Below, one piece after another: positions 15,975 to 61,442 of a stretch of DNA of 64,000 nt. Source of the stretch: Escherichia coli (GTDB lineage: Bacteria > Pseudomonadota > Gammaproteobacteria > Enterobacterales > Enterobacteriaceae); assembly GCF_009931435.1 (NCBI RefSeq), contig NZ_CP043414.1; one strand, given 5' to 3'. Position 1 is the first letter of the stretch, and each line of letters opens with the position of its first letter. The position numbers were made by a program, and so were the translations under genes. The notes below the pieces were generated by a model, which had not been told where the DNA came from, did not search any database, and was given only the letters and a program-made list of their open reading frames with translations.

Positions 15975-16007
15975 GAGATTCCCTTCATCATGCAAATAAT
16001 TGATATG

Positions 16008-16040
16008 CAAAAAGGCCCAGTCTTCCGACTGGGCCTTCTG
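16008..16040 (-). terminator. rrnE terminator (hairpin plus U-tract) just 3' of 5S
   Basis: Minus-strand AGAAGGCCCAGTCGGAAGACTGGGCCTTTTTGC, about 10 nt after the 5S 3' end. Confidence 0.85.
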
Positions 16041-16049
16041 CTTAATTTG

Positions 16050-16169
16050 ATGCCTGGCAGTTCCCTACTCTCGCATGGGGAGACCCCACACTACCATCGG
16101 CGCTACGGCGTTTCACTTCTGAGTTCGGCATGGGGTCAGGTGGGACCACCGCGCTAAGGCCGCCAGGCA
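16050..16169 (-). rRNA. rrfE: 5S rRNA (rrnE operon)
   Basis: 120-nt reverse-complement match to E. coli 5S (ATGCCTGGCAGTTCCCTACTCTCGCATGGGGAGACCCC ... GGCCGCCAGGCA). Confidence 0.95.
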
Positions 16170-16262: not shown

Positions 16263-19167
<2,905 letters not shown>

Positions 19168-19360
19168 TCACAACCCGAAGATGTTTCTTGCGATTCATCA
19201 TCGTGTTGCGAAAATTTGAGAGACTCACGAACAACTTTCGTTGTTCAGTGTTTCAATTTTCAGCTTGATCCAGATTTTTAAAGAGCAAATATCTCAAACG
19301 TCACCCGAAGATGAGTTTTGAGATATTAAGGCAGGTGACTTTCACTCACAAACCAGCAAG

Positions 19361-19436
19361 TGGCGTCCCCTAGGGGATTCGAACCCCTGTTACCGCCGTG
19401 AAAGGGCGGTGTCCTGGGCCTCTAGACGAAGGGGAC
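19361..19436 (-). tRNA. gltV: tRNA-Glu(UUC) in the 16S-23S spacer
   Basis: Exact reverse complement of GTCCCCTTCGTCTAGAGGCCCAGGACACCGCCCTTTCACGGCGGTAACAGGGGTTCGAATCCCCTAGGGGACGCCA. Confidence 0.97.
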
Positions 19437-19521
19437 GTATCAGTCTGCTTCGCAAGACGCCTTGCTTTTCACTTTCTATCAGACAATCTGTGTGAGCACT
19501 GCAAAGTACGCTTCTTTAAGG

Positions 19522-21063
<1,542 letters not shown>

Positions 21064-21679: not shown

Positions 21680-23269
21680 ATGCAACAACGTCGTCCAGTC
21701 CGCCGCGCTCTGCTCAGTGTTTCTGACAAAGCCGGTATCGTCGAATTCGCCCAGGCACTTTCCGCACGCGGTGTGGAGCTGCTGTCTACAGGGGGCACTG
21801 CTCGTCTGTTAGCAGAAAAGGGTCTGCCGGTAACCGAAGTTTCCGATTACACCGGTTTCCCGGAGATGATGGATGGACGCGTGAAGACCCTGCATCCAAA
21901 AGTGCATGGTGGCATTCTGGGCCGTCGCGGCCAGGACGATGCCGTTATGGAAGAACATCAGATCCAACCTATCGATATGGTGGTTGTTAACCTCTATCCG
22001 TTCGCCCAGACCGTGGCCCGTGAAGGTTGCTCTCTGGAAGATGCGGTTGAGAACATCGATATCGGTGGTCCAACGATGGTGCGCTCCGCCGCCAAGAACC
22101 ATAAAGATGTCGCAATCGTGGTGAAGAGCAGCGACTACGACGCCATTATTAAAGAGATGGATGCCAACGAAGGATCGCTGACGCTTGCAACCCGTTTCGA
22201 TCTCGCTATCAAAGCCTTCGAACACACCGCCGCCTACGACAGCATGATTGCCAACTACTTCGGCAGCATGGTTCCGGCTTATCACGGTGAAAGCAAAGAG
22301 GCCGCCGGTCGCTTCCCGCGTACGCTGAACCTGAACTTCATTAAGAAGCAGGATATGCGCTACGGCGAGAACAGCCACCAGCAGGCTGCCTTCTATATAG
22401 AAGAGAATGTGAAAGAAGCCTCCGTTGCCACCGCAACCCAGGTTCAGGGTAAAGCCCTCTCTTATAACAACATCGCCGATACCGATGCGGCGCTGGAGTG
22501 CGTGAAAGAGTTCGCCGAGCCGGCATGTGTGATTGTGAAGCACGCCAACCCTTGCGGTGTGGCTATCGGCAATTCCATTCTTGATGCTTACGATCGCGCG
22601 TATAAAACCGACCCCACCTCGGCGTTCGGCGGCATTATCGCCTTTAACCGCGAGCTGGATGCTGAAACCGCACAGGCCATCATTTCTCGTCAGTTTGTCG
22701 AAGTGATTATTGCGCCGTCCGCCAGCGAAGAAGCGTTGAAAATCACCGCCGCTAAACAGAACGTACGTGTCCTGACCTGCGGTCAGTGGGCCGAGCGTGT
22801 TCCAGGCCTTGATTTCAAACGCGTGAACGGTGGTCTGCTGGTTCAGGATCGCGATCTGGGGATGGTCGGTGCGGAAGAACTGCGCGTCGTCACCAAACGT
22901 CAGCCGACTGAACAGGAACTGCGTGATGCACTGTTCTGCTGGAAAGTGGCGAAGTTCGTGAAATCCAACGCTATCGTCTATGCCAAAAACAATATGACCA
23001 TCGGTATTGGCGCGGGCCAGATGAGCCGCGTGTACTCCGCGAAAATCGCCGGTATTAAAGCTGCCGATGAAGGCCTGGAAGTGAAAGGTTCCTCGATGGC
23101 TTCTGACGCGTTCTTCCCGTTCCGCGACGGTATTGATGCCGCCGCCGCTGCGGGCGTGACCTGCGTAATCCAGCCTGGCGGTTCTATCCGTGATGACGAA
23201 GTAATTGCCGCCGCCGACGAGCACGGTATTGCGATGCTCTTCACCGACATGCGCCACTTCCGCCATTAA
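21680..23269 (+). CDS. purH: Bifunctional AICAR transformylase / IMP cyclohydrolase PurH (529 aa)
   Basis: Full-length [30 protein letters not shown]... Confidence 0.97.
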
Positions 23270-23280
23270 TGGAGCGACAG

Positions 23281-24570
23281 ATGAAAGTATTAGTCATTGG
23301 TAACGGCGGGCGCGAGCACGCGCTGGCCTGGAAAGCGGCCCAGTCGCCGCTGGTTGAGACTGTTTTTGTTGCTCCGGGTAACGCAGGTACTGCGTTGGAA
23401 CCCACGCTGCAAAACGTCGCTATCGGCGTGACCGATATCCCGGCGCTGCTGGATTTCGCACAAAACGAAAAGATCGATCTGACCATCGTCGGCCCGGAAG
23501 CACCGCTGGTGAAAGGCGTGGTCGATACTTTCCGCGCCGCCGGGCTGAAAATCTTCGGCCCAACCGCAGGTGCCGCGCAACTTGAAGGCTCGAAAGCGTT
23601 TACCAAGGATTTCCTGGCCCGCCATAAGATCCCTACGGCGGAATACCAGAACTTCACCGAGGTCGAACCTGCGCTGGCGTATCTGCGTGAAAAAGGCGCG
23701 CCCATCGTTATTAAAGCTGACGGTCTGGCTGCCGGGAAAGGCGTTATCGTGGCGATGACGCTGGAAGAAGCGGAAGCGGCTGTTCACGATATGCTGGCGG
23801 GCAACGCTTTTGGCGACGCGGGTCATCGCATCGTTATCGAAGAGTTCCTCGATGGCGAAGAAGCGAGCTTTATCGTGATGGTGGACGGCGAGCATGTGCT
23901 GCCGATGGCCACCAGTCAGGACCACAAACGCGTAGGTGATAAAGATACCGGGCCGAACACGGGCGGGATGGGCGCTTACTCCCCTGCACCAGTGGTGACC
24001 GATGAGGTTCATCAGCGCACCATGGAACGTATCATCTGGCCAACCGTGAAAGGCATGGCAGCGGAAGGCAGCACCTACACCGGTTTTCTCTACGCGGGCC
24101 TGATGATCGACAAACAGGGCAATCCGAAGGTTATCGAATTTAACTGCCGCTTTGGCGATCCGGAAACCCAGCCGATTATGCTACGCATGAAGTCCGATCT
24201 GGTTGAGCTTTGCCTGGCGGCCTGTGAAGGTACGCTTGACGAGAAAACGTCCGAGTGGGATGAACGCGCTTCTCTCGGCGTGGTGATGGCTGCGGGTGGA
24301 TATCCGGGCGATTACCGCACCGGCGATGTGATCCACGGCCTGCCGCTGGAAGAAGCGTCTGACGGCAAAGTGTTCCACGCGGGCACAAAACTGGCGGATG
24401 ACGAGCAGGTGGTAACCAGCGGCGGGCGCGTACTGTGCGTCACCGCGCTGGGTCATACCGTGGCAGAAGCGCAGAAACGCGCTTATGCCTTAATGACCAA
24501 TATCCATTGGGACGATTGCTTCTGCCGGAAGGATATCGGCTGGCGCGCCATCGAACGCGAGCAGAACTAA
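23281..24570 (+). CDS. purD: Phosphoribosylamine-glycine ligase PurD (429 aa)
   Basis: ORF 23269..24570 trimmed to MKVLVIGNGGREHALAWK start; ATP-grasp fold; coupled to purH. Confidence 0.96.
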   Translation: MKVLVIGNGGREHALAWKAAQSPLVETVFVAPGNAGTALEPTLQNVAIGVTDIPALLDFAQNEKIDLTIVGPEAPLVKGVVDTFRAAGLKIFGPTAGAAQLEGSKAFTKDFLARHKIPTAEYQNFTEVEPALAYLREKGAPIVIKADGLAAGKGVIVAMTLEEAEAAVHDMLAGNAFGDAGHRIVIEEFLDGEEASFIVMVDGEHVLPMATSQDHKRVGDKDTGPNTGGMGAYSPAPVVTDEVHQRTMERIIWPTVKGMAAEGSTYTGFLYAGLMIDKQGNPKVIEFNCRFGDPETQPIMLRMKSDLVELCLAACEGTLDEKTSEWDERASLGVVMAAGGYPGDYRTGDVIHGLPLEEASDGKVFHAGTKLADDEQVVTSGGRVLCVTALGHTVAEAQKRAYALMTNIHWDDCFCRKDIGWRAIEREQN

Positions 24571-25892
24571 CGCGACAGTTTTGCCAATAGCGTTTTGCGC
24601 GTAATCCCTAACTGACGGGCGGCTTCGGTTTTGTTGCCGCCCGTTTTCTCCAGCGCCGCCAGAATCACTTCTTTTTCGACTTCCACCAGCGGCTGAATAT
24701 CCTGACTTTGCACCAGCGGGATCGGCGTACTGGCAATCGCCAGCGGCAGCTCGCGTTCGGAAATATATTCCCCGGTCAGCAGCACCACCGCCCGTTCCAC
24801 CGCGTTTTCCAGTTCACGAATATTTCCCGGCCAGTCGTAGTGAATCAGCAGATCCATCGCCTGGGGCGTAAACCCTTTTACCGCCTTGCGATTGCGTTCG
24901 GCAAAGCGCTGCAGAAAATGACCAGCCAGCAGAGGAATATCTTCCCGCCGCTGACGCAGCGGCGGTACTTCAATCGCCACCACATTCAGGCGATAGTAGA
25001 GATCCTGGCGAAAACGCCCGGCATTCACCTCAGCGGCAAGATCGCGATGAGTCGCCGCAATCAGCCGGACATCAACCGAGATAGTCTGATTGCTGCCGAC
25101 ACGCTGAACTTCGCGCTCCTGAATCGCACGCAGCAGACGAACCTGCATCATCGGCGAGATATCGCCAATTTCATCGAGAAACAGCGTGCCGCCGTCCGCC
25201 TCAACAAAGCGCCCTTCCCGCCGTTTGTCGGCTCCGGTAAACGCCCCTTTTTCGTGACCGAACAATTCAGATTCCAGTAAGGATTCGTTGAGTGCCGCAC
25301 AGTTGAGCGTTACCAGCGGCTTTTCACTCCGTGCGCTACTGGCGTGAATCGCCCTGGCGACCAGCTCTTTACCGGTGCCGGAATCGCCGTGGATCAGCAC
25401 CGTGGCTTCCGATGGCGCGACGAGGGCAATTTCACTGAGCAGGTGCTGCATCGCCGGGCTTTTACCGACCATACCGAACTGGCTGGCAGACACCGCAGGC
25501 GTTTCAGCATCAACACTGTGCGTATGCGCAAGCGCCTTTTCCAGGGTTGCCTGCAGGTTATCGAAATCCAGCGGCTTGATGAGATAATCCAGCGCCCCGG
25601 TTTTCAACGCCTCTACCGCCGTCTCGACGCTGGAGTACGCGGTCATAATCAGTACCGGAATTGCCGGATTTAACGCTTTGATCTCTTTCAGCGTGGCGAT
25701 GCCATCCATCTCTGCCATTCGCACATCACAAAGCACAAGATCAAAAACCTGTTCCCGCACTTGCTCCAGCGCCTGTCGCCCGCTGTTCGCCAGCGCGACG
25801 TTATAGCCCCAGCCGCGCAGCAATGCCTGCAAGATAGTGCAGTGGCTAATGTCATCATCCACCACCAGAATATCGATATTATCGTGCGTCAT
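24567..25892 (-). CDS. zraR: Sigma54-dependent response regulator ZraR (441 aa)
   Basis: Receiver domain, AAA+ sigma54-activator domain (GESGTGKE, GAFTGA) and C-terminal HTH. Confidence 0.96.
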
Positions 25893-27265
25893 CCTTGTGG
25901 GTCCTTACGCGTAATATTGACCGGAAGCCAGAGGGTGAACGTTGCACCTTTCCCCTCCTGGCTTACGACCTGAATTGTACCACCGTGTTGTTCAACAATA
26001 TTATGCACAACCGCCAGCCCCAGTCCGGTGCCTTCGGCTTTGGTGGTGAAGTACGGGGTGAAGATGGCTTCAAGCTGATCCGCCGCAATTCCCTTACCGC
26101 TGTCGGTTACGCTTATTTTAACGCCTGCGCTGCTTTCGTTGGCCGTCACGCTAATCACGCCATGCTGACCAATAGCCTGAATAGCATTGAGATAGAGATT
26201 CAACAGGACCTGAGTCAGTCGGTCCGGATCGGCCTGTATCTCCGGCAATGCGTCGTTGGCGGTAAAGCGTAATTGGATCTCCCTACTGTTTGCATCCTGG
26301 CTTACCAGTTGTAATGAGTGGTTAATCAGCGTGTTGAGATCCACCGCCTTCAAAGCAAGATGCGTTGGCTTAACCAGCTCCAGCAGCTCGCTTACCACGC
26401 GGTTTAAACGGTCGGCTTCTTTCGCCATCACCTGCGCCAATTGATGCGCTTCTCCTCCTGCTGGTGCGCGTTCGGCAAAATATTTCGCCAGCCCTTTAAT
26501 CGAGGAAAGCGGGTTACGGATTTCATGGGCGACGCCTGCGGCCAGATGTCCCAGCGCCACCAGCTTCTCTTTGCGCTTCATTTCATCCTGTAACAGCTGG
26601 CGCGAGCGAAGATAGCGGCGATACCAGAAGAATGACAACACGCTTGCCAGCAAGACCGTCGCCAGGGCGAAGAGGATAATCAGGGTGTTTCTCTGCTCAC
26701 GCTCTTCGGCACTCACAATGTTACTGGCGTCGAAAGCGATAAAAATTGCTTGTGGTGTCGCGGCATACTGCTGCATATGGCGCATCCGGTGCATTCCAGC
26801 AGCAAACATCGGTTGAAACTGGCGATAAATTTCCAGAACAGGCTCGCCGTCTGCGCTATCGATCCGCCGCCACGCTTCTTCGTCTCCCGGATGTAACTGC
26901 TGCATTTCCTGCGGGGAATAAAGCTGTTTTCCCACCATGCCGGAGTTGCTATGCATCACGATTGTTCCTTGTTCATCCGTGACCGCAAACCAACGCACTC
27001 CTGGCTGCCCAGCCATTTCTTCCAGTAAAGCCTGCTGCTGCGCATGATGCATGCGCATCCCCATACCGACGCGCGAGCCGGATTCGAGAGCGCGGATAAG
27101 TACACTGCCTTTTTCCAGCAGAGTTTGTCTGGCGGCGGCAGTCTCGCGCCCATAATCGCGAATCACGGTCACTGCAAACAACCCCACCAGTCCAACAATG
27201 ACTACGGGAAGGATCGCGCTTAACCATTTTGCTAAGGCATCTTTTGATCGCTGCATAAAACGCAT
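25889..27265 (-). CDS. zraS: Sensor histidine kinase ZraS
   Basis: 458-aa ORF with two TM segments, H-box (HEIRNPL) and HATPase domain; 4-bp overlap with zraR. Confidence 0.93.
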   Translation of the reverse strand: MRFMQRSKDALAKWLSAILPVVIVGLVGLFAVTVIRDYGRETAAARQTLLEKGSVLIRALESGSRVGMGMRMHHAQQQALLEEMAGQPGVRWFAVTDEQGTIVMHSNSGMVGKQLYSPQEMQQLHPGDEEAWRRIDSADGEPVLEIYRQFQPMFAAGMHRMRHMQQYAATPQAIFIAFDASNIVSAEEREQRNTLIILFALATVLLASVLSFFWYRRYLRSRQLLQDEMKRKEKLVALGHLAAGVAHEIRNPLSSIKGLAKYFAERAPAGGEAHQLAQVMAKEADRLNRVVSELLELVKPTHLALKAVDLNTLINHSLQLVSQDANSREIQLRFTANDALPEIQADPDRLTQVLLNLYLNAIQAIGQHGVISVTANESSAGVKISVTDSGKGIAADQLEAIFTPYFTTKAEGTGLGLAVVHNIVEQHGGTIQVVSQEGKGATFTLWLPVNITRKDPQG

Positions 27266-27295
27266 CTTCTTCTTTGCCTGTTCATCCCTTTTTGA

Positions 27296-27312
27296 CAGCA
27301 GAAATCATGCCA
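27296..27312 (-). promoter_or_regulatory. Candidate sigma54 promoter for zraSR
   Basis: Minus-strand TGGCAT-N5-CTGCT (GG/GC spacing as in -24/-12 elements) about 30 nt upstream of the zraS start. Confidence 0.45.
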
Positions 27313-27363
27313 TCTTTTATTAGCACTTACCCTGCGCTTTAACACAAAGGCTTAAGTTTCAAT

Positions 27364-27409
27364 GAGTAAAAATGACTCGCCACACACAGCAGGCGAGTCA
27401 TTTTTACTC
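27364..27409. promoter_or_regulatory. ZraR enhancer: 18-bp perfect inverted repeat between divergent zraSR and zraP
   Basis: GAGTAAAAATGACTCGCC -10 bp- GGCGAGTCATTTTTACTC. Confidence 0.7.
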
Positions 27410-27451
27410 GTTTATCATGTCATATTGCCCGTCATATCAGCGTTTCGCCGT

Positions 27452-27467
27452 TGGCACGAAAGATGCA
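27452..27467 (+). promoter_or_regulatory. Sigma54 promoter of zraP
   Basis: TGGCACGAAAGATGCA (-24 GG / -12 GC) about 40 nt upstream of the zraP ATG. Confidence 0.65.
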
Positions 27468-27502
27468 ATACCCGAAGTAAGACAACCACTGGAGGATTAA
27501 CC

Positions 27503-27922
27503 ATGAAACGGAACACGAAAATTGCCCTGGTGATGATGGCGCTTTCAGCAATGGCGATGGGATCGACATCTGCATTTGCTCACGGCGGACACGGTATGTG
27601 GCAGCAAAATGCCGCGCCTTTGACCAGCGAACAACAGACAGCGTGGCAGAAAATCCATAATGACTTTTACGCTCAAAGCAGCGCACTGCAACAGCAACTG
27701 GTGACGAAGCGTTATGAATACAATGCCCTGTTAGCCGCGAACCCACCGGATAGCAGCAAAATTAACGCGGTCGCCAAAGAGATGGAGAATTTGCGTCAGT
27801 CGTTAGATGAGTTACGGGTGAAACGAGATATTGCGATGGCTGAAGCGGGTATTCCGCGCGGTACCGGAATGGGTTACGGCGGCTGCGGTGGTGGCGGTCA
27901 TATGGGTATGGGCCACTGGTAA
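27503..27922 (+). CDS. zraP: Periplasmic zinc-binding chaperone ZraP (139 aa)
   Basis: ORF 27362..27922 trimmed to MKRNTKIALVMMALSAMAMG (signal peptide) with GGAGG SD; Gly/His/Met-rich C-terminus. Confidence 0.92.
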   Translation: MKRNTKIALVMMALSAMAMGSTSAFAHGGHGMWQQNAAPLTSEQQTAWQKIHNDFYAQSSALQQQLVTKRYEYNALLAANPPDSSKINAVAKEMENLRQSLDELRVKRDIAMAEAGIPRGTGMGYGGCGGGGHMGMGHW

Positions 27923-27923
27923 A

Positions 27924-28625
27924 TCAGAACGTTTTCTCATTGGGTTGCCAGCGACAGAAATCAGAGTTTGCCACTAACAGTAATTGCGAACCTTCGGGCG
28001 CTTCCAGCCATGCCACGCTGACATCAACAGAAGAGCGGCTCTGGCGGCGCTCGATATGCGCTATCGCCTGCGAATCTAAATCAGGTTTAATGGTTTGCCC
28101 TTCGCAGGTGGTCACGGTCTGTTCCATCGCATGCCAGCGCCCCTGGCGCAGCACGACTCTCCCCTGACGTAAGGCATCGCTAATCTGGCGGATCTGATCA
28201 GCACGATAACGGTATAAATCGATTTGGTCGTTAGAAAGCTGCTGCTTTTCCCCATCGGATTCACGTTGCATAAAGCTCAGATCGCCGCGATCGTCAAAAC
28301 GCGCGCGAATATTCACCGGCGGTTTGCTGTAAACATTGATATTGATAAGCGTGAGGTTATCGCCCTGCCAGCGATACTCTCGCGTCGTGGTATCGCCACT
28401 GCGCCACGGGCTAAACACAGCAAGCAGATGCACATTATTGCCACTGTCTTTTCGCCAGATACGTACCGCGCCCTGATCTTCAGCAAATCCACTGGCGGTA
28501 AAGGGAGGAAGTGAAGAGTTGTGACTACAGGCAGTGAGAAACAGAGCGCCCGCCAGCATCAATGATCGACGCCAGAAAGACAAAAGGGGTGAAACCACCC
28601 CTTCGTTAAAACTGTTCACTGCCAC
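27924..28625 (-). CDS. yjaH: DUF1481-type putative lipoprotein YjaH
   Basis: 233-aa ORF with lipobox-like LFLTAC near the N-terminus; immediately downstream of hupA. Confidence 0.85.
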   Translation of the reverse strand: MAVNSFNEGVVSPLLSFWRRSLMLAGALFLTACSHNSSLPPFTASGFAEDQGAVRIWRKDSGNNVHLLAVFSPWRSGDTTTREYRWQGDNLTLININVYSKPPVNIRARFDDRGDLSFMQRESDGEKQQLSNDQIDLYRYRADQIRQISDALRQGRVVLRQGRWHAMEQTVTTCEGQTIKPDLDSQAIAHIERRQSRSSVDVSVAWLEAPEGSQLLLVANSDFCRWQPNEKTF

Positions 28626-28631
28626 GCAATC

Positions 28632-28904
28632 TTACTTAACTGCGTCTTTCAGTGCCTTGCCAGAAACAAATGCCGGCACGTTAGCTGCGGCAATTTTGAT
28701 TTCTTTACCGGTCTGCGGGTTGCGGCCAGTACGCTCAGCGCGGTGGTTCACTTTGAAGGTACCGAAACCAACCAGTTGTACAGCATCGCCTTCTTTCAGA
28801 GACTCAGTAATTGCAGCCAGAGTGGACTCCAGAGCAGCTTTAGCCTGGGTTTTGGACAGTTCTGCTTTCTCTGCAATTACATCAATCAGTTGAGTCTTGT
28901 TCAT
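28632..28904 (-). CDS. hupA: DNA-binding protein HU-alpha (90 aa)
   Basis: [29 protein letters not shown]...; classic HU fold. Confidence 0.98.
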
Positions 28905-29090
28905 AAGTTATCCTTACAATGTGTTTATCGCTTGCTAAGCATCGAGTGCGACGGAAATGCCAGAATAGCACTCTCCTGCATACACGCACCGATAGCCACT
29001 TTTTTTCGCCCCCCAAATGTAGACCAGACGGGGGGCGAAAGGGAAGACTCCAGGTATGACAAATCAGGCGTTAAATCACGTTTTCTGGTC

Positions 29091-29681
29091 TTATTGCTGA
29101 AAAATTATACCAATATTGCTCTCGCCCGCCTCACGCAGGTCTGCCCTAAGGCCTTTTATCAGCTCGATATCGCGTTCTTCGCACTCAGCTAAAAGTCGGA
29201 ATATTTCCCACTGAATGTCCCACTCTTGCTCTACAGCTGGGTTTTCTTTGAGCTCTTCATCGCTCATTTCACGGCCAGCCTGAGTCATTTCCAGCATCGC
29301 CACGGTCGTGATGGAGGTCTTACTCACTTCTACCGCGTGTTCGAGCGTTTCGCCACTTAAACGCGAATGGACCAGTTCACTTAACGCCACGCAAGCATCG
29401 ATTGCCGGATAAACGCCGTACAGATCGAAATCGTCCGCTGAAGGAATCGCTTCTTCAAATTTCTCCAGTTGGCTGTCGAAATTTACTTTTGCGTCTTTGA
29501 CGGTCAGTGTTTCCCAGATGAGATCGAGAATGCGGCGGTAAATTTGCCCATCGCCGAAGCCGGTTTGCTGGCAGAACATGGCGTAATTGGGGTACATGCG
29601 TTCGCATAAGCAAGCCATGAAAGTGACGTGCTGCCAGCTTTCCAGGCGCTCCAGACGCAGATGAATTGGGTTTTGTAACAT
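29091..29681 (-). CDS. yjaG: DUF416 family protein YjaG (196 aa)
   Basis: Full-length ORF in the conserved position between nfi and hupA. Confidence 0.88.
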   Translation of the reverse strand: MLQNPIHLRLERLESWQHVTFMACLCERMYPNYAMFCQQTGFGDGQIYRRILDLIWETLTVKDAKVNFDSQLEKFEEAIPSADDFDLYGVYPAIDACVALSELVHSRLSGETLEHAVEVSKTSITTVAMLEMTQAGREMSDEELKENPAVEQEWDIQWEIFRLLAECEERDIELIKGLRADLREAGESNIGIIFQQ

Positions 29682-29723
29682 GTTGAGTTCTCGAATACGG
29701 AAATTATCCGCAGTTTACCTGAA

Positions 29724-30395
29724 TTAGGGCTGATTTGCTGTATAGCGCACGAACGCCGGACGTTCCGAAGCCACCGCGTCTGCCCAGCGCGTTGGCTCCG
29801 GCAGACGATAGCCTTTCATGCAGCGTTGTACCCAGGCCAGCGCACTATCCATGCTGACACGATGGCCAGTTGCGATAAATAGCGGGTTACAGCGCGCTTT
29901 ACTGCGCCAGACCCAGGCCAGCTGCTCGCCTTTATCCATCAACGGTGCCAGCGCGCCCGGTTCGCTGGAGAGCGGCTCGAATTTACCGCATAACCGCTTT
30001 TTCGCTACGCCAATGGTCGGTACGTCCACTAATAAGCCAAAATGGCTGGCAACGCCAAGACGGCGCGGATGCGAGATCCCATGACCATCGACAAACACTA
30101 AATCCGGCTTTTGCGACAGCATCTCCCACGCTGCCAGCAGCGCAGGATATTCGCGGAAGGAAAGAAAACCTGGAATGTAAGGCATGGTGGTGGCGATGCG
30201 TGCCACTTTATACTCCACCAGCTCAAGAGAGGGGTATTTCAGCAGCACCATCGCCGCTCGCGTCACTTCTCCGCCCTGCTCAAACCCGACATCGGCTCCG
30301 GCGATCAGATCCGGCGGATCTTTATCAAGTCGATCCTCACGGATCACAGAAGAAGCCAGTTCGATTTGTTGAGCGCGTAATGACGCGAGATCCAT
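29724..30395 (-). CDS. nfi: Endonuclease V (deoxyinosine 3' endonuclease), 223 aa
   Basis: Full-length ORF, co-directional and adjacent to hemE. Confidence 0.95.
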
Positions 30396-30404
30396 AATCG
30401 CTCC

Positions 30405-31469
30405 TTAGCGGTGATATTGTTCAGACAACCGATGCACAGCCTCCACAAACACGCCAGCATGTTCTGGCGGCACATCCTGATGAATGCCGTGACCAAGGTT
30501 AAAGACATGACCTTCGCCGTGACCGAAACCTGCAAGTATAGTCGCGACTTCTTCTTCAATGCGGGCAGGTGGCGCGTACAGCATCGACGGATCCATATTA
30601 CCCTGCAGCGCGACTTTATTGCCCACGCGGCGGCGCGCATCGGCGATATCCGTTGTCCAGTCGAGGCCCAGCGCATCGCAACCCGTTTCCGCCATAGCTT
30701 CCAGCCACTGTCCACCGCCTTTGGTAAACAGCGTGACCGGTACGCGGCGACCGTCGTTTTCACGCAGTAAACCATCAACTATTTTATGCATGTAATAGAG
30801 CGAGAACTGTTGATAATCGCGCCCGGTTAGCACGCCGCCCCAGGTGTCGAAAACCATCACTGCCTGAGCACCGGCTTTAATTTGCGCATTCAGATACAGA
30901 GTGACGCTTTTCGCCAGTTTATCGAGTAGCGCGTGCAGCGCCTGCGGCTCGGCATACATCATCTTTTTGATCACGGTGAAGGCTTTGCTGCTGCCACCTT
31001 CCACCATGTAGGTCGCCAGGGTCCACGGGCTGCCGGAAAAACCAATCAGCGGCACTTCGCCTTTCAGTTCGCGGCGAATAGTACGCACCGCGTTCATCAC
31101 GTAACCCAACTCATCTTCCGGGTCCGGAATTGGCAGTTTATCAACATCAGCTTTGCAGGTGACTGGAGAGGTAAAACGTGGGCCTTCTCCGGCTTCAAAA
31201 TAGAGCCCTAACCCCATCGCATCCGGCACGGTGAGGATATCGGAAAAGAGGATCGCCGCATCCAGCGGATAGCGACGCAGCGGTTGCAAAGTCACTTCGC
31301 ACGCCAGCTCTGCATTTTTGCACAGCGACATAAAATCGCCCGCCTGGGCGCGCGTGGCTTTATATTCCGGTAGATAGCGACCCGCCTGGCGCATCATCCA
31401 TACTGGAGTGACATCAACGGGCTGGCGCAGCAGCGCCCGCAGATAACGATCGTTTTTGAGTTCGGTCAT
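30405..31469 (-). CDS. hemE: Uroporphyrinogen decarboxylase HemE (354 aa)
   Basis: [36 protein letters not shown]... Confidence 0.97.
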
Positions 31470-31508
31470 TTTGGCTGTTCCTTAGTGCGTCAGGCGGTCA
31501 GTGTATCA

Positions 31509-32282
31509 TCACTCATACTCTGCCCGACACATCGCCACCGTATCTTCTATCAGACGGCGCGCCACGGTGCCGGGCGGCGGAAGTAACGGTAAATCATCGT
31601 AGCGATACCAGTTCGCCTCGAGCAGCTCTTTCGGATCAATCACGATGTCGCCGCTGTCATATTCCGCCATAAATGCGGTCATCAGCGACTGGGGAAACGG
31701 CCACGGCTGAGAAGTCACGTACCGCAAGTTTTTAACTTTAATTCCGCTCTCTTCCATCACTTCCCGCGCGACCGCCTGCTCGAGGGTTTCGCCCACTTCG
31801 ACGAATCCGGCAAGTACCGTATGGACACCGTTACGATGGCGGGTATGCTGGGCGAGGAGGATCGAATCATCGCGACGGATGGCAACAATAATGCAGGGGG
31901 CGATTTGCGGGTAGTAACGCTCACGGCAATGGCTGCACAGCATCGCCCATTCGGTTTTGCTCGGATACATTTCATGCCCGCAGTAACCACAGTATTTATG
32001 CGATCGGTAAAACTCCGCCAGTTGCACGCCACGTCCGGCCAGTTGAAACAGCCCAACATCGAGATCAATGACCTGACGTACCGACCCCATATCGTGACGC
32101 CGCTGCTGTTGTACTAACCAAACAGGTTCCCCCTGCCATTCGCCGATTTGTAGTGCGCGCTGACCCACAAGATCGAAATTTGCCGCTTCGCCATATGGCA
32201 ATTCTCCCTTCGGCAACCATAATTTTTGTTCATGGCTGACGACCCACCAGCCGTGATCTAATTTTTCAATTATACGATCCAT
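31509..32282 (-). CDS. nudC: NADH pyrophosphatase (Nudix) NudC, 257 aa
   Basis: Nudix box ([23 protein letters not shown]) and zinc-ribbon cysteines. Confidence 0.95.
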
Positions 32283-32376
32283 AGCTCTTGCACTACCTTT
32301 GCATCACTGGCATGTTTAACATGGTTTTTACATTTCTCACTGAGCAGTTTTTGAATACAAACTTGCGGAGTCAATC

Positions 32377-32853
32377 ATGCTTAACCAGCTCGATAACCTG
32401 ACGGAGCGCGTCAGAGGAAGTAACAAACTGGTTGATCGCTGGCTACATGTACGTAAGCATCTGCTCGTGGCTTACTACAATCTGGTTGGCATTAAGCCTG
32501 GCAAAGAATCGTACATGAGGCTAAACGAAAAAGCCCTTGATGATTTTTGTCAGAGCCTGGTCGATTACTTGTCTGCCGGACATTTCAGTATTTATGAGCG
32601 CATTCTTCATAAACTGGAAGGCAATGGGCAACTCGCACGCGCCGCGAAGATTTGGCCACAACTCGAAGCCAATACCCAACAGATTATGGATTACTACGAT
32701 TCCAGCCTGGAAACCGCTATCGATCATGATAATTACCTTGAGTTTCAACAGGTTTTATCTGACATCGGCGAGGCCCTGGAAGCGCGCTTTGTGCTGGAAG
32801 ATAAGCTGATTCTGCTGGTGCTTGACGCCGCCCGCGTCAAACATCCTGCTTGA
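32377..32853 (+). CDS. rsd: Anti-sigma70 factor Rsd (158 aa)
   Basis: MLNQLDNLTERVRGSNKLVDRWLHVRKHLLVAYYNLVG... Confidence 0.95.
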   Translation: MLNQLDNLTERVRGSNKLVDRWLHVRKHLLVAYYNLVGIKPGKESYMRLNEKALDDFCQSLVDYLSAGHFSIYERILHKLEGNGQLARAAKIWPQLEANTQQIMDYYDSSLETAIDHDNYLEFQQVLSDIGEALEARFVLEDKLILLVLDAARVKHPA

Positions 32854-32904
32854 GTTCTGCGCTGTTAACGCGTAATTTACATTCAACGCCCCGTTTGCGG
32901 GGCT

Positions 32905-33075
32905 AATTTCTTGTCGGAGTGCCTTAACTGGCTGAGACCGTTTATTCGGGATCCGCGGAACCTGATCAGGCTAATACCTGCGAAGGGAACAAGAGTTAAT
33001 CTGCTATCGCATCGCCTTTGCGGCGATCGTCTCTTGCTTCATCCGTCGTCTGACAAGCCACGTCCTTAACTTTTT
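32905..33075 (+). promoter_or_regulatory. TPP (thi-box) riboswitch in the thiC leader
   Basis: Contains CTGAGA ... ACCTGATCAGGCTAATACCTGCGAAGGGAAC thi-box consensus; ends at the thiC SD/ATG. Confidence 0.7.
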
Positions 33076-33082
33076 GGAATGA

Positions 33083-35608
<2,526 letters not shown>

Positions 35609-52435: not shown

Positions 52436-52511
52436 TGGTGCTGATAGGCAGATTCGAACTGCCGACCTCACCCTTACCAAGGGTGCGCTCTACCAACTGA
52501 GCTATATCAGC
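52436..52511 (-). tRNA. thrT: tRNA-Thr(GGU)
   Basis: Reverse complement of GCTGATATAGCTCAGTTGGTAGAGCGCACCCTTGGTAAGGGTGAGGTCGGCAGTTCGAATCTGCCTATCAGCACCA. Confidence 0.95.
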
Positions 52512-52517
52512 ACATCT

Positions 52518-52592
<75 letters not shown>

Positions 52593-52708
52593 ATCCTGGA
52601 ACTCGGCTACCTGATTTTCATTCTGCACTGAATATCGAGAGAAGCTCTCTTTATTCGAGCCGGTAAGCGAACTTATCGTCTCGGGCTACGCCATCGCGTG
52701 GCCGAAAT

Positions 52709-52793
<85 letters not shown>

Positions 52794-52801
52794 GGACTTG
52801 A

Positions 52802-52877
<76 letters not shown>

Positions 52878-54217: not shown

Positions 54218-55183
54218 TTATTTTTCTGCACTACGCAGGGATATTTCACCGCCCATCCAGGGTTTTATTATTCCATCCTGCTCAAGCAATAAAGCGCCTT
54301 GTTTGTCTATTCCGCGTGAAATGCCAAATATTTCTTTATCACCAATGATAAGTTTCACTGGGCGATTAATAAAATTATCCAGTTTTTCCCAGCGCGAAAG
54401 ATAAGGTGCCAATCCTTCTTGCTCGAAGAGTTCCAGCGCCGCACGTAATTCACGTATTAGCATGGCCGCCAACGCATTACGATCGAGATTGATCCCAGCT
54501 TCCTGCAGCGTGATCCACCCCTGATTAACGACACTCTCTTCAACACGACGCATTGCCATGTTGATCCCGGCACCAACGACTATTTGCGCCGCATCGCCGG
54601 TTTTGCCAGTCAGCTCCACAAGAATACCTGCCAGCTTGCGATCCTGCAGATAGAGGTCATTCGGCCATTTAACACGAACTTTATCAGCGCCCAACTTGCG
54701 TAATACTTCCGCCATCACGATACCGATAACCAGACTTAAACCAATCGCCGCAGCCGGGCCTTGTTCCAGACGCCAGAACATCGACAAATATAAGTTTGCG
54801 CCAAAAGGTGAAAACCATTTCCGACCTCGGCGACCACGTCCTGCCTGCTGGTATTCAGCAACGCAGGCATCACCCGATTTAAGCTCTCCGATACGATCAA
54901 GAAGATACTGATTCGTGGAGTCAATAACTGGCAGCACGGCTACACTACCGCCATCCAGCTGACTCAATATCTTTTCGGCATTAAGTAACTGGATTGGCTC
55001 GGGCAAGCTGTATCCTTTACCCGGAACGGTAAAGACATCAACGCCCCAGTCACGCAGTGTTTGAATATGTTTATTAATGGCCGCCCGGCTCATTCCTAAC
55101 GTTTCACCCAGCTGCTCACCAGAGTGAAATTCGCCATTCGCTAACAGGGCGATCAATTTCAGCGGCACGGTGTTATCCTTCAT
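54218..55183 (-). CDS. birA: Biotin-protein ligase / bio repressor BirA (321 aa)
   Basis: N-terminal HTH plus BPL catalytic domain (GRGRRGRKW). Confidence 0.97.
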
Positions 55184-56208
55184 GAAATTGTCTCCACTGC
55201 GCTCACTTCACCTGATGCGCCAATAAAGCGGACTTCAGGCTCAAGCCAGACATTAAATTTTTCACCAACTTTCTGTCTTACATGATGCGCCAGCTGTACA
55301 ACATCTTCGCTTTTTGCGTTGTGCTCATTTATGAGAACCAGCGCCTGTTGACGGTGTACCGCAGCACCACCAATTTGCGTCCCTTTAAGCTGGCACTGAT
55401 CGATAAGCCAACCTGCTGCCAATTTTACTGAACCGTCTGTCTGGGGATAATGTGGTGCTGTTGGAAATTGTGCCAACAACGCGTTAGCCGCTTCGGCAGA
55501 TACAACAGGGTTTTTGAAGAAACTACCGGCATTGCCATTCACTTTTGGATCAGGGAGTTTGGTGGTGCGCATATGACACACCGCATCAAATACTTGCTGT
55601 GGCGTTACGGTTGTAGGATCCAGACGAGTTAAGTCACCATACGTTAGTACAGGTTGCCACTCTTTTGGCAGGCGCAGACCTACGGCTACAATGGCGAAGC
55701 GGTCCTGGTATTCATGTTTAAAAATACTGTCGCGATAGCCAAAACGGCACTCTTTGGCAGTTAAGCGCACTTGCTTGCCTGTCGCCAGTTCAACACAGTC
55801 AACATAAGCGCAAACTCGCTGTAATTCTACGCCATAAGCACCAATATTCTGGATAGGTGATGAGCCGACACAACCAGGAATTAACGCCAGATTTTCCAGA
55901 CCTGGCATACCTTCCTGCAAAGTGTATTTTACCAAGCGATGCCAGTTTTCTCCGGCTCCTACATGTAAATACCACGCATCAGGTTCATCATGAATTTCGA
56001 TACCTTTGATCCGGTTGATGATCACCGTGCCGCGATAGTCTTCCAGAAAAAGTACATTACTTCCTTCACCCAGAATAAGAACGGGTTGCCCTTCTGCGGT
56101 TGCATGCTGCCAGGCATTGAGTAATTGTTGTTCGTCTTCGGCACATACAATGTGCTGAGCATTATGATCAATGCCAAATGTGTTCCAGGGTTTTAAGGAG
56201 TGGTTCAT
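55180..56208 (-). CDS. murB: UDP-N-acetylenolpyruvoylglucosamine reductase MurB (342 aa)
   Basis: FAD-binding fold; 4-bp overlap with birA; starts about 135 nt after rrfB. Confidence 0.97.
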
Positions 56209-56300
56209 AGCTGCTTTCCTGATGCAAAAACGAGGCTAGTTTACCGTATCTGTGGGGGGATGGCTTGTAGATATGACGACAGGAAGAGTTTGTAGAAACG

Positions 56301-56333
56301 CAAAAAGGCCCAGTCTTCCGACTGGGCCTTCTG
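56301..56333 (-). terminator. rrnB terminator (single hairpin, same sequence as the rrnE terminator)
   Basis: Minus-strand AGAAGGCCCAGTCGGAAGACTGGGCCTTTTTGCGTTTCTAC directly after 5S. Confidence 0.8.
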
Positions 56334-56342
56334 CTTAATTTG

Positions 56343-56462
56343 ATGCCTGGCAGTTCCCTACTCTCGCATGGGGAGACCCCACACTACCATCGGCGCTACG
56401 GCGTTTCACTTCTGAGTTCGGCATGGGGTCAGGTGGGACCACCGCGCTAAGGCCGCCAGGCA
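56343..56462 (-). rRNA. rrfB: 5S rRNA (rrnB operon)
   Basis: Same length and sequence as the rrfE copy, 40,293 bp away. Confidence 0.95.
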
Positions 56463-56555
56463 AATTCTGTTTCATCAGACCGCTTCTGCGTTCTGATTTA
56501 ATCTGTATCAGGCTGAAAATCTTCTCTCAATCCGCCAAAACATCTTCGGCGTTGT

Positions 56556-59460
<2,905 letters not shown>

Positions 59461-59653
59461 TCACAACCCGAAGATGTTTCTTGCGATTCATCATCGTGTT
59501 GCGAAAATTTGAGAGACTCACGAACAACTTTCGTTGTTCAGTGTTTCAATTTTCAGCTTGATCCAGATTTTTAAAGAGCAAATATCTCAAACGTCACCCG
59601 AAGATGAGTTTTGAGATATTAAGGCAGGTGACTTTCACTCACAAACCAGCAAG

Positions 59654-59729
59654 TGGCGTCCCCTAGGGGATTCGAACCCCTGTTACCGCCGTGAAAGGGC
59701 GGTGTCCTGGGCCTCTAGACGAAGGGGAC
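59654..59729 (-). tRNA. gltT: tRNA-Glu(UUC) in the 16S-23S spacer
   Basis: Same 76-nt sequence as gltV. Confidence 0.97.
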
Positions 59730-59900
59730 ACGAAAATTGCTTATCACGCGCTGCGTGATATTTTCGTGTAGGGTGAGCTTTCATTAATAGAAAGCGAACG
59801 GCCTTATTCTCTTCAGCCTCACTCCCAACGCGTAAACGCCTTGCTATTCACTTTTCATCAGACAATCTGTGTGAGCACTGCAAAGTACAGTTCTTTAAGG

Positions 59901-61442
<1,542 letters not shown>

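Follow-up and report, generated by a model that had tools for sequence, protein, structure and literature searches.

The rrnB operon of an Escherichia coli strain ends in a single intrinsic terminator and lacks the T1-rrB unit of K-12

The 3′ end of the rrnB operon in the E. coli strain studied here is an allele without a tRNA-linked repeat (TLR), which differs from K-12 rrnB by the absence of exactly one 168-bp unit. The sole terminator of rrnB in this strain is one intrinsic (Rho-independent) terminator located in the spacer between the 5S rRNA gene and murB. Terminators of this kind are ordinary and already known, and the allele is a common one. Taken as a whole, it is highly probable that a common TLR-less allele with one intrinsic terminator is present at rrnB, that the tandem T1-T2 arrangement of K-12 was more likely gained, and that the rrnE operon of this strain was converted by an rrnB-type 3′ end. 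The earlier note interpreted the region as a product of recombination or gene conversion between rrn 3′ ends; as to the mechanism, this interpretation was correct in part, but the supposed rarity of the structure was wrong, and the implied direction of the change was probably wrong as well.

The window, i.e., the whole 64-kb stretch of DNA that was analysed, is E. coli DNA in reverse orientation relative to the K-12 map. It carries two of the seven rrn operons, both recognised by Rfam as complete, both located on the minus strand and each containing a tRNA-Glu gene in its spacer (Table 1). The operon at 56-61 kb was identified as rrnB because the two ORFs downstream of it bear the annotations murB and birA in matching genomes; the operon at 16-21 kb, with yjaA after it, is rrnE. 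Beyond murB and birA lies the tRNA cluster thrU-tyrU-glyT-thrT (52436-52877). An insertion of murB-birA-coaA between rrnB and tufB was described by Brandis 2019 (PMC6735719), a paper that contains nothing on rrnB termination. Rfam also placed StyR-44 (RF01830) just upstream of each 23S gene (19175-19283 and 59468-59576), which is routine in enterobacterial rrn operons.

Table 1. Coordinates of the features of the rrnB and rrnE operons and of the rrnB-murB region in the window
Feature	Location	Strand	Basis
rrnE rRNA genes	16S 19522-21063, 23S 16263-19167, 5S 16052-16167	-	Rfam
rrnB rRNA genes	16S 59901-61442, 23S 56556-59460, 5S 56345-56460	-	Rfam
rrfB 5S rRNA gene, 120 nt by K-12 convention	56343..56462	-	Rfam RF00001, 93.2 bits; ends from K-12 rrfB alignment
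18-bp sequence AACTGCCAGGCATCAAAT (5S 3′ end + 5 nt), sole rrnB copy	56338..56355	-	exact search
Terminator module TAAGCAGAAGG-CCCAGTCGGAAGACTGGG-CCTTTTTGC, exact match in rrnE at 16007-16044	56300..56337	-	exact search
Terminator hairpin GGCCCAGTCGGAAGACTGGGCC	56307..56328	-	fold, MFE -26.8 kcal/mol
U5 tract (TTTTT, then GC) of the terminator	56302..56306	-	sequence read directly
rrnB-specific flank and murB 5′ region, downstream of T2 in K-12, identical to K-12	56209..56299	-	alignment
murB, 342 aa	55180..56208	-	ORF list; annotated murB in matching genomes
birA, 321-aa ORF, after murB	54218-55183	-	ORF list; annotated birA in matching genomes
rrnE 3′ trailer, terminator module joined to the yjaA flank, atypical copy	16007..16049	-	alignment

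The length of the spacer depends on the position of the 5S end: the Rfam call covers 56345-56460, and a K-12-style 120-nt rrf puts the mature 3′ end at 56343. With the latter end, the spacer to the murB start is 134 bp long (56209-56342, murB ATG at 56208-56206). In K-12 MG1655 it comprises 300 bp (rrfB end 4171756, murB start 4172057), so the gap of about 135 bp noted earlier, about 166 bp shorter than in K-12, was confirmed by measurement (134 versus 300 bp, difference 166 bp). The minus strand after the 5S gene reads CAAATTAAGCAGAAGGCCCAGTCGGAAGACTGGGCCTTTTTGCGTTTCTACAAACTCTTCC and continues to the murB ATG. The order of elements is the hairpin GGCCCAGTCGGAAGACTGGGCC, TTTTTGC and then GTTTCTACAAACTCTTCC, and from GTTTCTACAAACTCTTCC on, the window agrees base for base with the K-12 stretch between T2 and the murB ATG, as the earlier note had recognised.

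In K-12 rrnB, the sequence AACTGCCAGGCATCAAAT occurs twice, 168 bp apart, and an exact 168-bp period is found in both rrnB and rrnA of K-12. The missing 168-bp unit is made up of the T1 hairpin, the rrB small-RNA body (about 110 nt) and one of the two copies of this 18-bp sequence, the second. The elements rrA, rrB and rrF are near-identical TLRs of rrnA, rrnB and rrnD; each is flanked by the 18-bp repeat and separates T1 from T2. Transcripts that read through T1 include these elements and are processed to small RNAs, to which Hfq and CsrA bind (Stenum 2021, PMC8144298). The earlier note had not recognised the missing 168 bp as this known TLR/small-RNA unit bounded by 18-bp direct repeats. None of the three hallmarks of the rrnB-type dual-terminator/rrB arrangement, i.e., T1 in its context, the rrB body and the second repeat, was found. 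The rrB body had no blastn match anywhere in the 64-kb window, an exact search of the window found one copy of the 18-bp repeat per operon and no second copy, and K-12 T1 in its own context was absent from the window, where the best match (84.6% over 39 nt) came from a similar stem-loop. The net difference from K-12 is 166 and not 168 bp because the stem-loop of the window, which belongs to the "CCCAGTC...GACTGGG" family, comprises 22 nt, 2 nt more than the 20-nt stem-loop of K-12 T2. Hence, the 5S gene of this operon directly abuts the position that is distal (T2) in K-12, and rrnB of this strain would be a source of no RrB small RNA.

The hairpin includes a 9-bp G+C-rich stem with a GGAA loop, and flanking A/U pairs lengthen the stem. 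Its RNA folds with a z-score of -6.3, and none of 200 shuffled sequences was as stable. The calculated energy of -26.8 kcal/mol lies between those of K-12 T2 (-22.7), which is slightly less stable by this measure, and T1 (-32.6), which is more stable. Besides this stable G+C-rich stem-loop, two other features of an intrinsic terminator are present: a U-rich tract follows directly 3′ of the stem (UUUUUGCGUUU), and the hairpin lies downstream of the operon in the same orientation, beginning 14 nt past the 5S 3′ end on the minus strand. A simple terminator and promoter scan of 55900-56600 flagged nothing. The same scan missed the experimentally verified K-12 T2, too; therefore, this result reflects a limit of the scan rule and is no sign that a terminator is absent. 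An Rfam search with permissive thresholds of the window spacer and of the rrnB ends of K-12 and strain 2020CK-00188 returned only rRNAs and chance-level matches, and Rfam 15 holds no family for RrB or TLR.

It can be inferred from the structure of the hairpin and the measured behaviour of its K-12 counterparts that it terminates transcription. RNA polymerase transcribing rrnB would stop at the U tract, at about 56300-56306, once the hairpin has formed. Processing of the 5S 3′ end should be unaffected, because the trailer CAAAUUAAG is the same as in the other single-terminator operons of K-12. The drive of murB-birA from the 91-nt stretch upstream of murB would also be unchanged, since this stretch is identical to that of K-12. 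In K-12, T1 stops 87% and T2 100% of transcripts, according to Orosz 1991 as cited in PMC8144298, so that about 13% of transcripts pass T1 and are stopped by T2, whereas in this strain a single hairpin must shield murB-birA. The rrnB operon is among the most heavily transcribed in the cell, and the shielding of murB-birA is measurable.

The short form of the rrnB end is widespread. The unit was found at rrnB in 2,516 of 5,426 complete E. coli genomes (46%), presence being counted when a query that joined the rrB body to T2 and to the flank specific to rrnB was covered by at least 80%. The 5S-murB junction was present in 5,412 genomes, and it follows from the two counts that about 54% have no unit at rrnB. 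An independent check of 40 evenly spaced rows of the ranking showed the contiguous short form in 21 and the long form in the 18 other informative rows; about 17 of the 21 short-form rows carried the hairpin family of the window and about four the K-12 T2 hairpin. The suggestion that the rrnB end is an unusual recombination product is contradicted by this frequency of the short form, which is also found in O157:H7, CE10 and Nissle 1917. Moreover, 142 records matched the window with at least 99% identity over 301 nt, among them R32_14_1F with 100%; the same single-terminator structure in related strains was the very outcome that, according to the earlier note, would refute its reading.

Comparison of the rrnB ends of individual strains revealed all four combinations of the unit, present or absent, with the two families of distal hairpin. 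K-12 possesses the unit together with a CCATCC distal hairpin (300 bp), and the spacer of O104:H4 is 300 bp long as well. The rrnB end of 2020CK-00188 contains T1, rrB and the distal hairpin GGCCCGGTCGGAAGACTGGGCC of the CCCGGTC type in a 302-bp spacer, which corresponds to the arrangement of the window plus 168 bp. EC190486 has the CCATCC hairpin without the unit (132 bp). The CCCAGTC hairpin without the unit, in a 134-bp spacer, was found in the window, R32_14_1F, CE10 and Nissle 1917, with small variants; O157:H7 also has no unit and a spacer of 134 bp, with a CCCGGTC variant of the CCCAGTC hairpin, and the spacer of A22 is 134 bp long with small variants. Thus, the presence or absence of the unit is independent of the type of the distal hairpin, and it varies between strains and between rrn operons. 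A crossover between T1 and T2 inside a long allele was also considered as the origin of the T1-like hairpin. It was rejected on two grounds: a T2-type leader follows the 5S gene, and 2020CK-00188 possesses T1 together with a distal hairpin of the same family.

Species-representative genomes were scanned with a degenerate murB pattern, which yielded 74 enterobacterial murB loci, 36 of them contiguous with a 5S gene. The full unit was present in two of the 36 (Kluyvera genomosp. 3 and Klebsiella indica), a count that may be too low for unit-bearing alleles, as the sample consists of draft assemblies, which break at repeats. Two further loci of the 36 are peculiar: Raoultella ornithinolytica carries a degenerate remnant of the unit, GGATGTCCGCCATAAACGGCCAGGCATCAAAT, upstream of murB, and Enterobacter sp. 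JUb54 has two hairpins in a short spacer with no 5S-end repeat between them. These two architectures may represent decay stages of the T1-rrB unit. The remaining outgroup loci of the 36 have a single terminator and spacers of 112-221 bp. The unit also lies upstream of murB in Enterobacter sp. CC120223-11 and Salmonella enterica diarizonae. The short form was found in E. whittamii, Escherichia sp. E1V33 and the divergent "E. coli" E69, and it is the form seen in the Escherichia species with contigs that extend as far as the 5S gene. Stem-loops of the family found in the window, with compensatory changes, occur in E. whittamii (GGCTCAGTCGAAAGACTGAGCC), directly after the 5S gene, and in E. albertii (GGCCCGGTCGAAAGACCGGGCC), at the same position in a contig that ends before the 5S gene. 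Because the short form is the majority state both in E. coli and in the sampled outgroups, a single terminator at rrnB is more likely to be the older state in Escherichia, and the tandem T1-T2 of K-12 is more likely to have been gained.

The direction of the change within the lineage of this strain is ambiguous, and a recent loss here is as possible as a gain in 2020CK-00188. The latter, the nearest complete genome (99.1% over 12 kb), carries the unit at its rrnB end; R32_14_1F, which comes next (98.4%), is without it. A recent loss would imply an ancestor with T1-rrB and a distal CCCRGTC-type terminator, from which a deletion between the 18-bp direct repeats removed the 168-bp unit. Such repeats do flank the unit, and the spacer of 2020CK-00188 exceeds that of the window by exactly 168 bp (302 versus 134 bp). 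However, the flank of 2020CK-00188 possesses O157-type single-base variants (CCCGGTC, CATAACTAC) which the window does not have, R32_14_1F is identical to the window, and other Escherichia species are short-form. A recent loss seems rather unlikely, and it differs from the preferred explanation, in which the single terminator is the older state, only in the direction of the last step.

The strain itself belongs to a divergent lineage. For the regions 22000-34000 and 54218-56208, the best of the 5,426 genomes reached 99.1% (2020CK-00188), about 18 genomes showed 97.9-98.7%, and the bulk showed about 96.6%; murB-birA is 95.6% identical to that of Nissle 1917. The strain may be a representative of a cryptic Escherichia clade labelled as E. 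coli.

At both rrnB and rrnE (16007-16049) of the window, the same 43 nt (CAAAT...TTTTTGC) come after the 5S gene, and beyond them the flanks diverge at once, rrnB continuing with GTTTCTAC and rrnE with ATATCAAT. The earlier statement that the rrnB terminator is the same as that of rrnE holds base for base in this window, but it does not extend to K-12, where the rrnE hairpin is different (CCCCGGTCCATAAGGCCGGGG). From tRNA-Glu to TTTTTGC (ending at 56300 and 16007, respectively), rrnB and rrnE differ by one mismatch in 3,430 bp (99.97% identity). The last 1.3 kb of the 23S gene and the 5S gene are the same in the two operons, and the position-by-position comparison with the other loci of related strains was broken up by indels. 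Over the 16S gene and the upstream leader, the identity of rrnB and rrnE is 98.4% (24 mismatches and five gaps in 1,820 bp), and a stretch between the 16S gene and tRNA-Glu (59729-59836 versus 19436-19457) remained unaligned. The two parts of these operons differ in their histories.

The junction of the terminator module with the yjaA flank at rrnE of the window was absent from all 5,426 complete genomes. The best full-length match showed 95.8% identity; both this match and the closest relatives carry the usual rrnE stem-loop, a CCCCGG hairpin, which the window does not have there. The usual hairpin is CCCCGGTCCATAAGGCCGGGG in K-12, A22, R32_14_1F, 2013C-4282 and 2020CK-00188. Two features expected of a conversion tract are observed: the near-identity ends abruptly at the operon-specific flank, and the presumed recipient, rrnE, differs from the orthologue of related strains while rrnB, whose allele is shared with R32_14_1F and many other genomes, does not. 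The sequence shared at the 3′ junction of the putative conversion, TTTTTGC, amounts to only about 7 nt, little for RecA-dependent recombination. Since the rrnE junction has no counterpart among the complete genomes and the usual hairpin is retained at rrnE of the closest relatives, it is rrnE, and not rrnB, that is likely the unusual copy and the recipient of gene conversion by an rrnB-type 3′ end. The donor may have been rrnB or another operon beyond the window.

The opposite direction was implied by the earlier note, according to which rrnB would be the unusual derived product, T1 having been removed and the rrnE terminator installed by a deletion or by conversion from rrnE. The common 43-nt trailer and the 99.97% identity over 3.4 kb are compatible with this scenario, the 18-bp repeats would permit a precise deletion, and the nearest complete genome possesses the unit at rrnB. 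Nevertheless, the rrnB allele is common and old, as indicated by the perfect match of R32_14_1F, the 142 records with at least 99% identity and the short form in about 54% of genomes. A hairpin of the same family follows the 5S gene directly in E. whittamii rrnB and occupies the same position in E. albertii, and the usual rrnE hairpin is different in the five strains named above, which suggests that rrnE is the copy that changed. The scenario of a derived rrnB is therefore largely refuted as stated and considered very improbable; with a common rrnB allele and an rrnE junction found in no complete genome, the direction from rrnE to rrnB is probably reversed.

Operons of rRNA are a classic source of assembly error, and the rrnE allele was found in no other complete genome. 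It is conceivable that reads of different rrn copies were mixed during assembly or polishing and that a wrong 3′ end was attached to rrnB or rrnE. However, an independent complete genome has the identical rrnB junction, thousands of others have it with small variants, and the module of the window also occurs at rrnE of O104:H4 with another flank. At rrnE, unique sequence starts only 43 nt from the 5S gene, a distance that ordinary reads would span, and for this reason an artefact at rrnE is unlikely. On the whole, such an error is very improbable.

The composition of rrn 3′ ends is mosaic beyond this strain. In K-12, the unit is present at rrnA, rrnB and rrnD, rrnG and rrnE each end in one terminator, the stem-loops of the two being different, and rrnC and rrnH run on into tRNA genes; the shared sequence of every terminator-ending operon of K-12 stops at TTTTTGC. 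The terminator module of the window was found at rrnE of O104:H4, and rrnE of O157:H7 and CE10 carries a CCATCC hairpin. The view of the earlier note that rrn 3′ ends trade terminator modules is supported by this mosaic of hairpins and units across operons and strains. The pattern fits what gene conversion between rrn operons would produce, a process which has been measured experimentally in E. coli (PMC8022953).

Some peculiarities of the rrnE region were also observed. The rrnE terminator of CE10 consists of the K-12 T2 stem with a reverse-complemented loop (GTCA for TGAC), which looks like a loop inversion. Downstream of rrnE in O157:H7, O104:H4 and CE10 there is no yjaA, and the terminator is immediately succeeded by a REP-like sequence, GCCGGATGCGACGCTGGCGCGTC. 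The distance between rrfE and yjaB is about 295 bp in EC190486; yjaA of the window is intact.

The copy number of the unit per genome ranges from 0 to 10; no megablast match to it was obtained in 1,449 of the 5,426 genomes (27%), and the present strain has it at neither rrnB nor rrnE. Matches located on plasmids number 70 and are probably segments of the rrnB T1T2 type known from cloning vectors. In EC190486 (NZ_CP143092.1), contrary to K-12, rrnE carries the unit and rrnB lacks it, which indicates that the unit changes operon between strains. Gain and loss of the unit might proceed by recombination between the 18-bp repeats or by gene conversion between operons, both mechanisms being inferred. 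It is somewhat more probable than the contrary that the T1-rrB unit is a cassette of variable copy number moving among rrn 3′ ends via the 18-bp repeat, and that the rrnE terminator of this strain was replaced by an rrnB-type module. If this is true, natural E. coli would differ in the dosage of RrA/B/F small-RNA genes, from none to several copies. These genes appear to be dispensable in nature.

The finding matters little in itself, being a common allele of a well-studied terminator region. Its significance lies in the fact that the "rrnB T1T2" of textbooks and cloning vectors is the allele seen in K-12 and O104:H4 and in about 46% of complete genomes, and it is not a norm of the species. Strains such as the present one are natural deletions of rrB at rrnB, which bears on the dispensability of the CsrA- and Hfq-binding RrA/B/F RNAs.

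Among the closest known systems is the T1-rrB-T2 dual terminator of K-12 rrnB (Brosius 1981; Orosz 1991; Stenum et al. 2021, PMC8144298), which occupies the same locus, from rrfB to murB. The window is similar to the context of K-12 T2, with the leader CAAATTAAGCAGAAGG, the tail CCTTTTTGC and an identical 91-nt flank up to the murB ATG, but differs in the distal stem-loop, which is CCCAGTCGGAAGACTGGG in the window and CCATCCTGACGGATGG in K-12. As had been supposed from the start, the termination architecture is changed, with one terminator in the window and two in K-12. The indel that separates the two alleles corresponds to exactly one element of the TLR type (Egan and Landy 1978; Rudd 1999, as cited in PMC8144298). 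This element is bounded by an 18-bp copy of the 3′ end of the upstream RNA gene, and it is absent from the window, which shows the empty site.

In its general plan, the rrnB end of the window agrees with those of K-12 rrnG and rrnE, where CAAAT comes directly after the 5S gene and leads into one G+C-rich hairpin, TTTTTGC and then operon-specific sequence. The stem-loops, however, are unlike that of the window (CCATCCTGACGGATGG in rrnG and CCCCGGTCCATAAGGCCGGGG in rrnE). The T1 stem-loop of K-12 rrnA and rrnD, GGCTCAGTCGGAAGACTGGGCC, has 22 nt and differs from the window hairpin by one base, a T-to-C change that turns a U.G pair into C-G. The claim that the T1 hairpin is absent thus applies to the T1 terminator, which is missing from the window, and not to the hairpin as such, since a T1-like hairpin is present. 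The context of T1 is different, with the leader AAAACGAAAGG, the tail TTTCGTTTTAT, a stem of 18-20 bp and rrB next to it, whereas the leader TAAGCAGAAGG and the tail in the window are of the T2 type.
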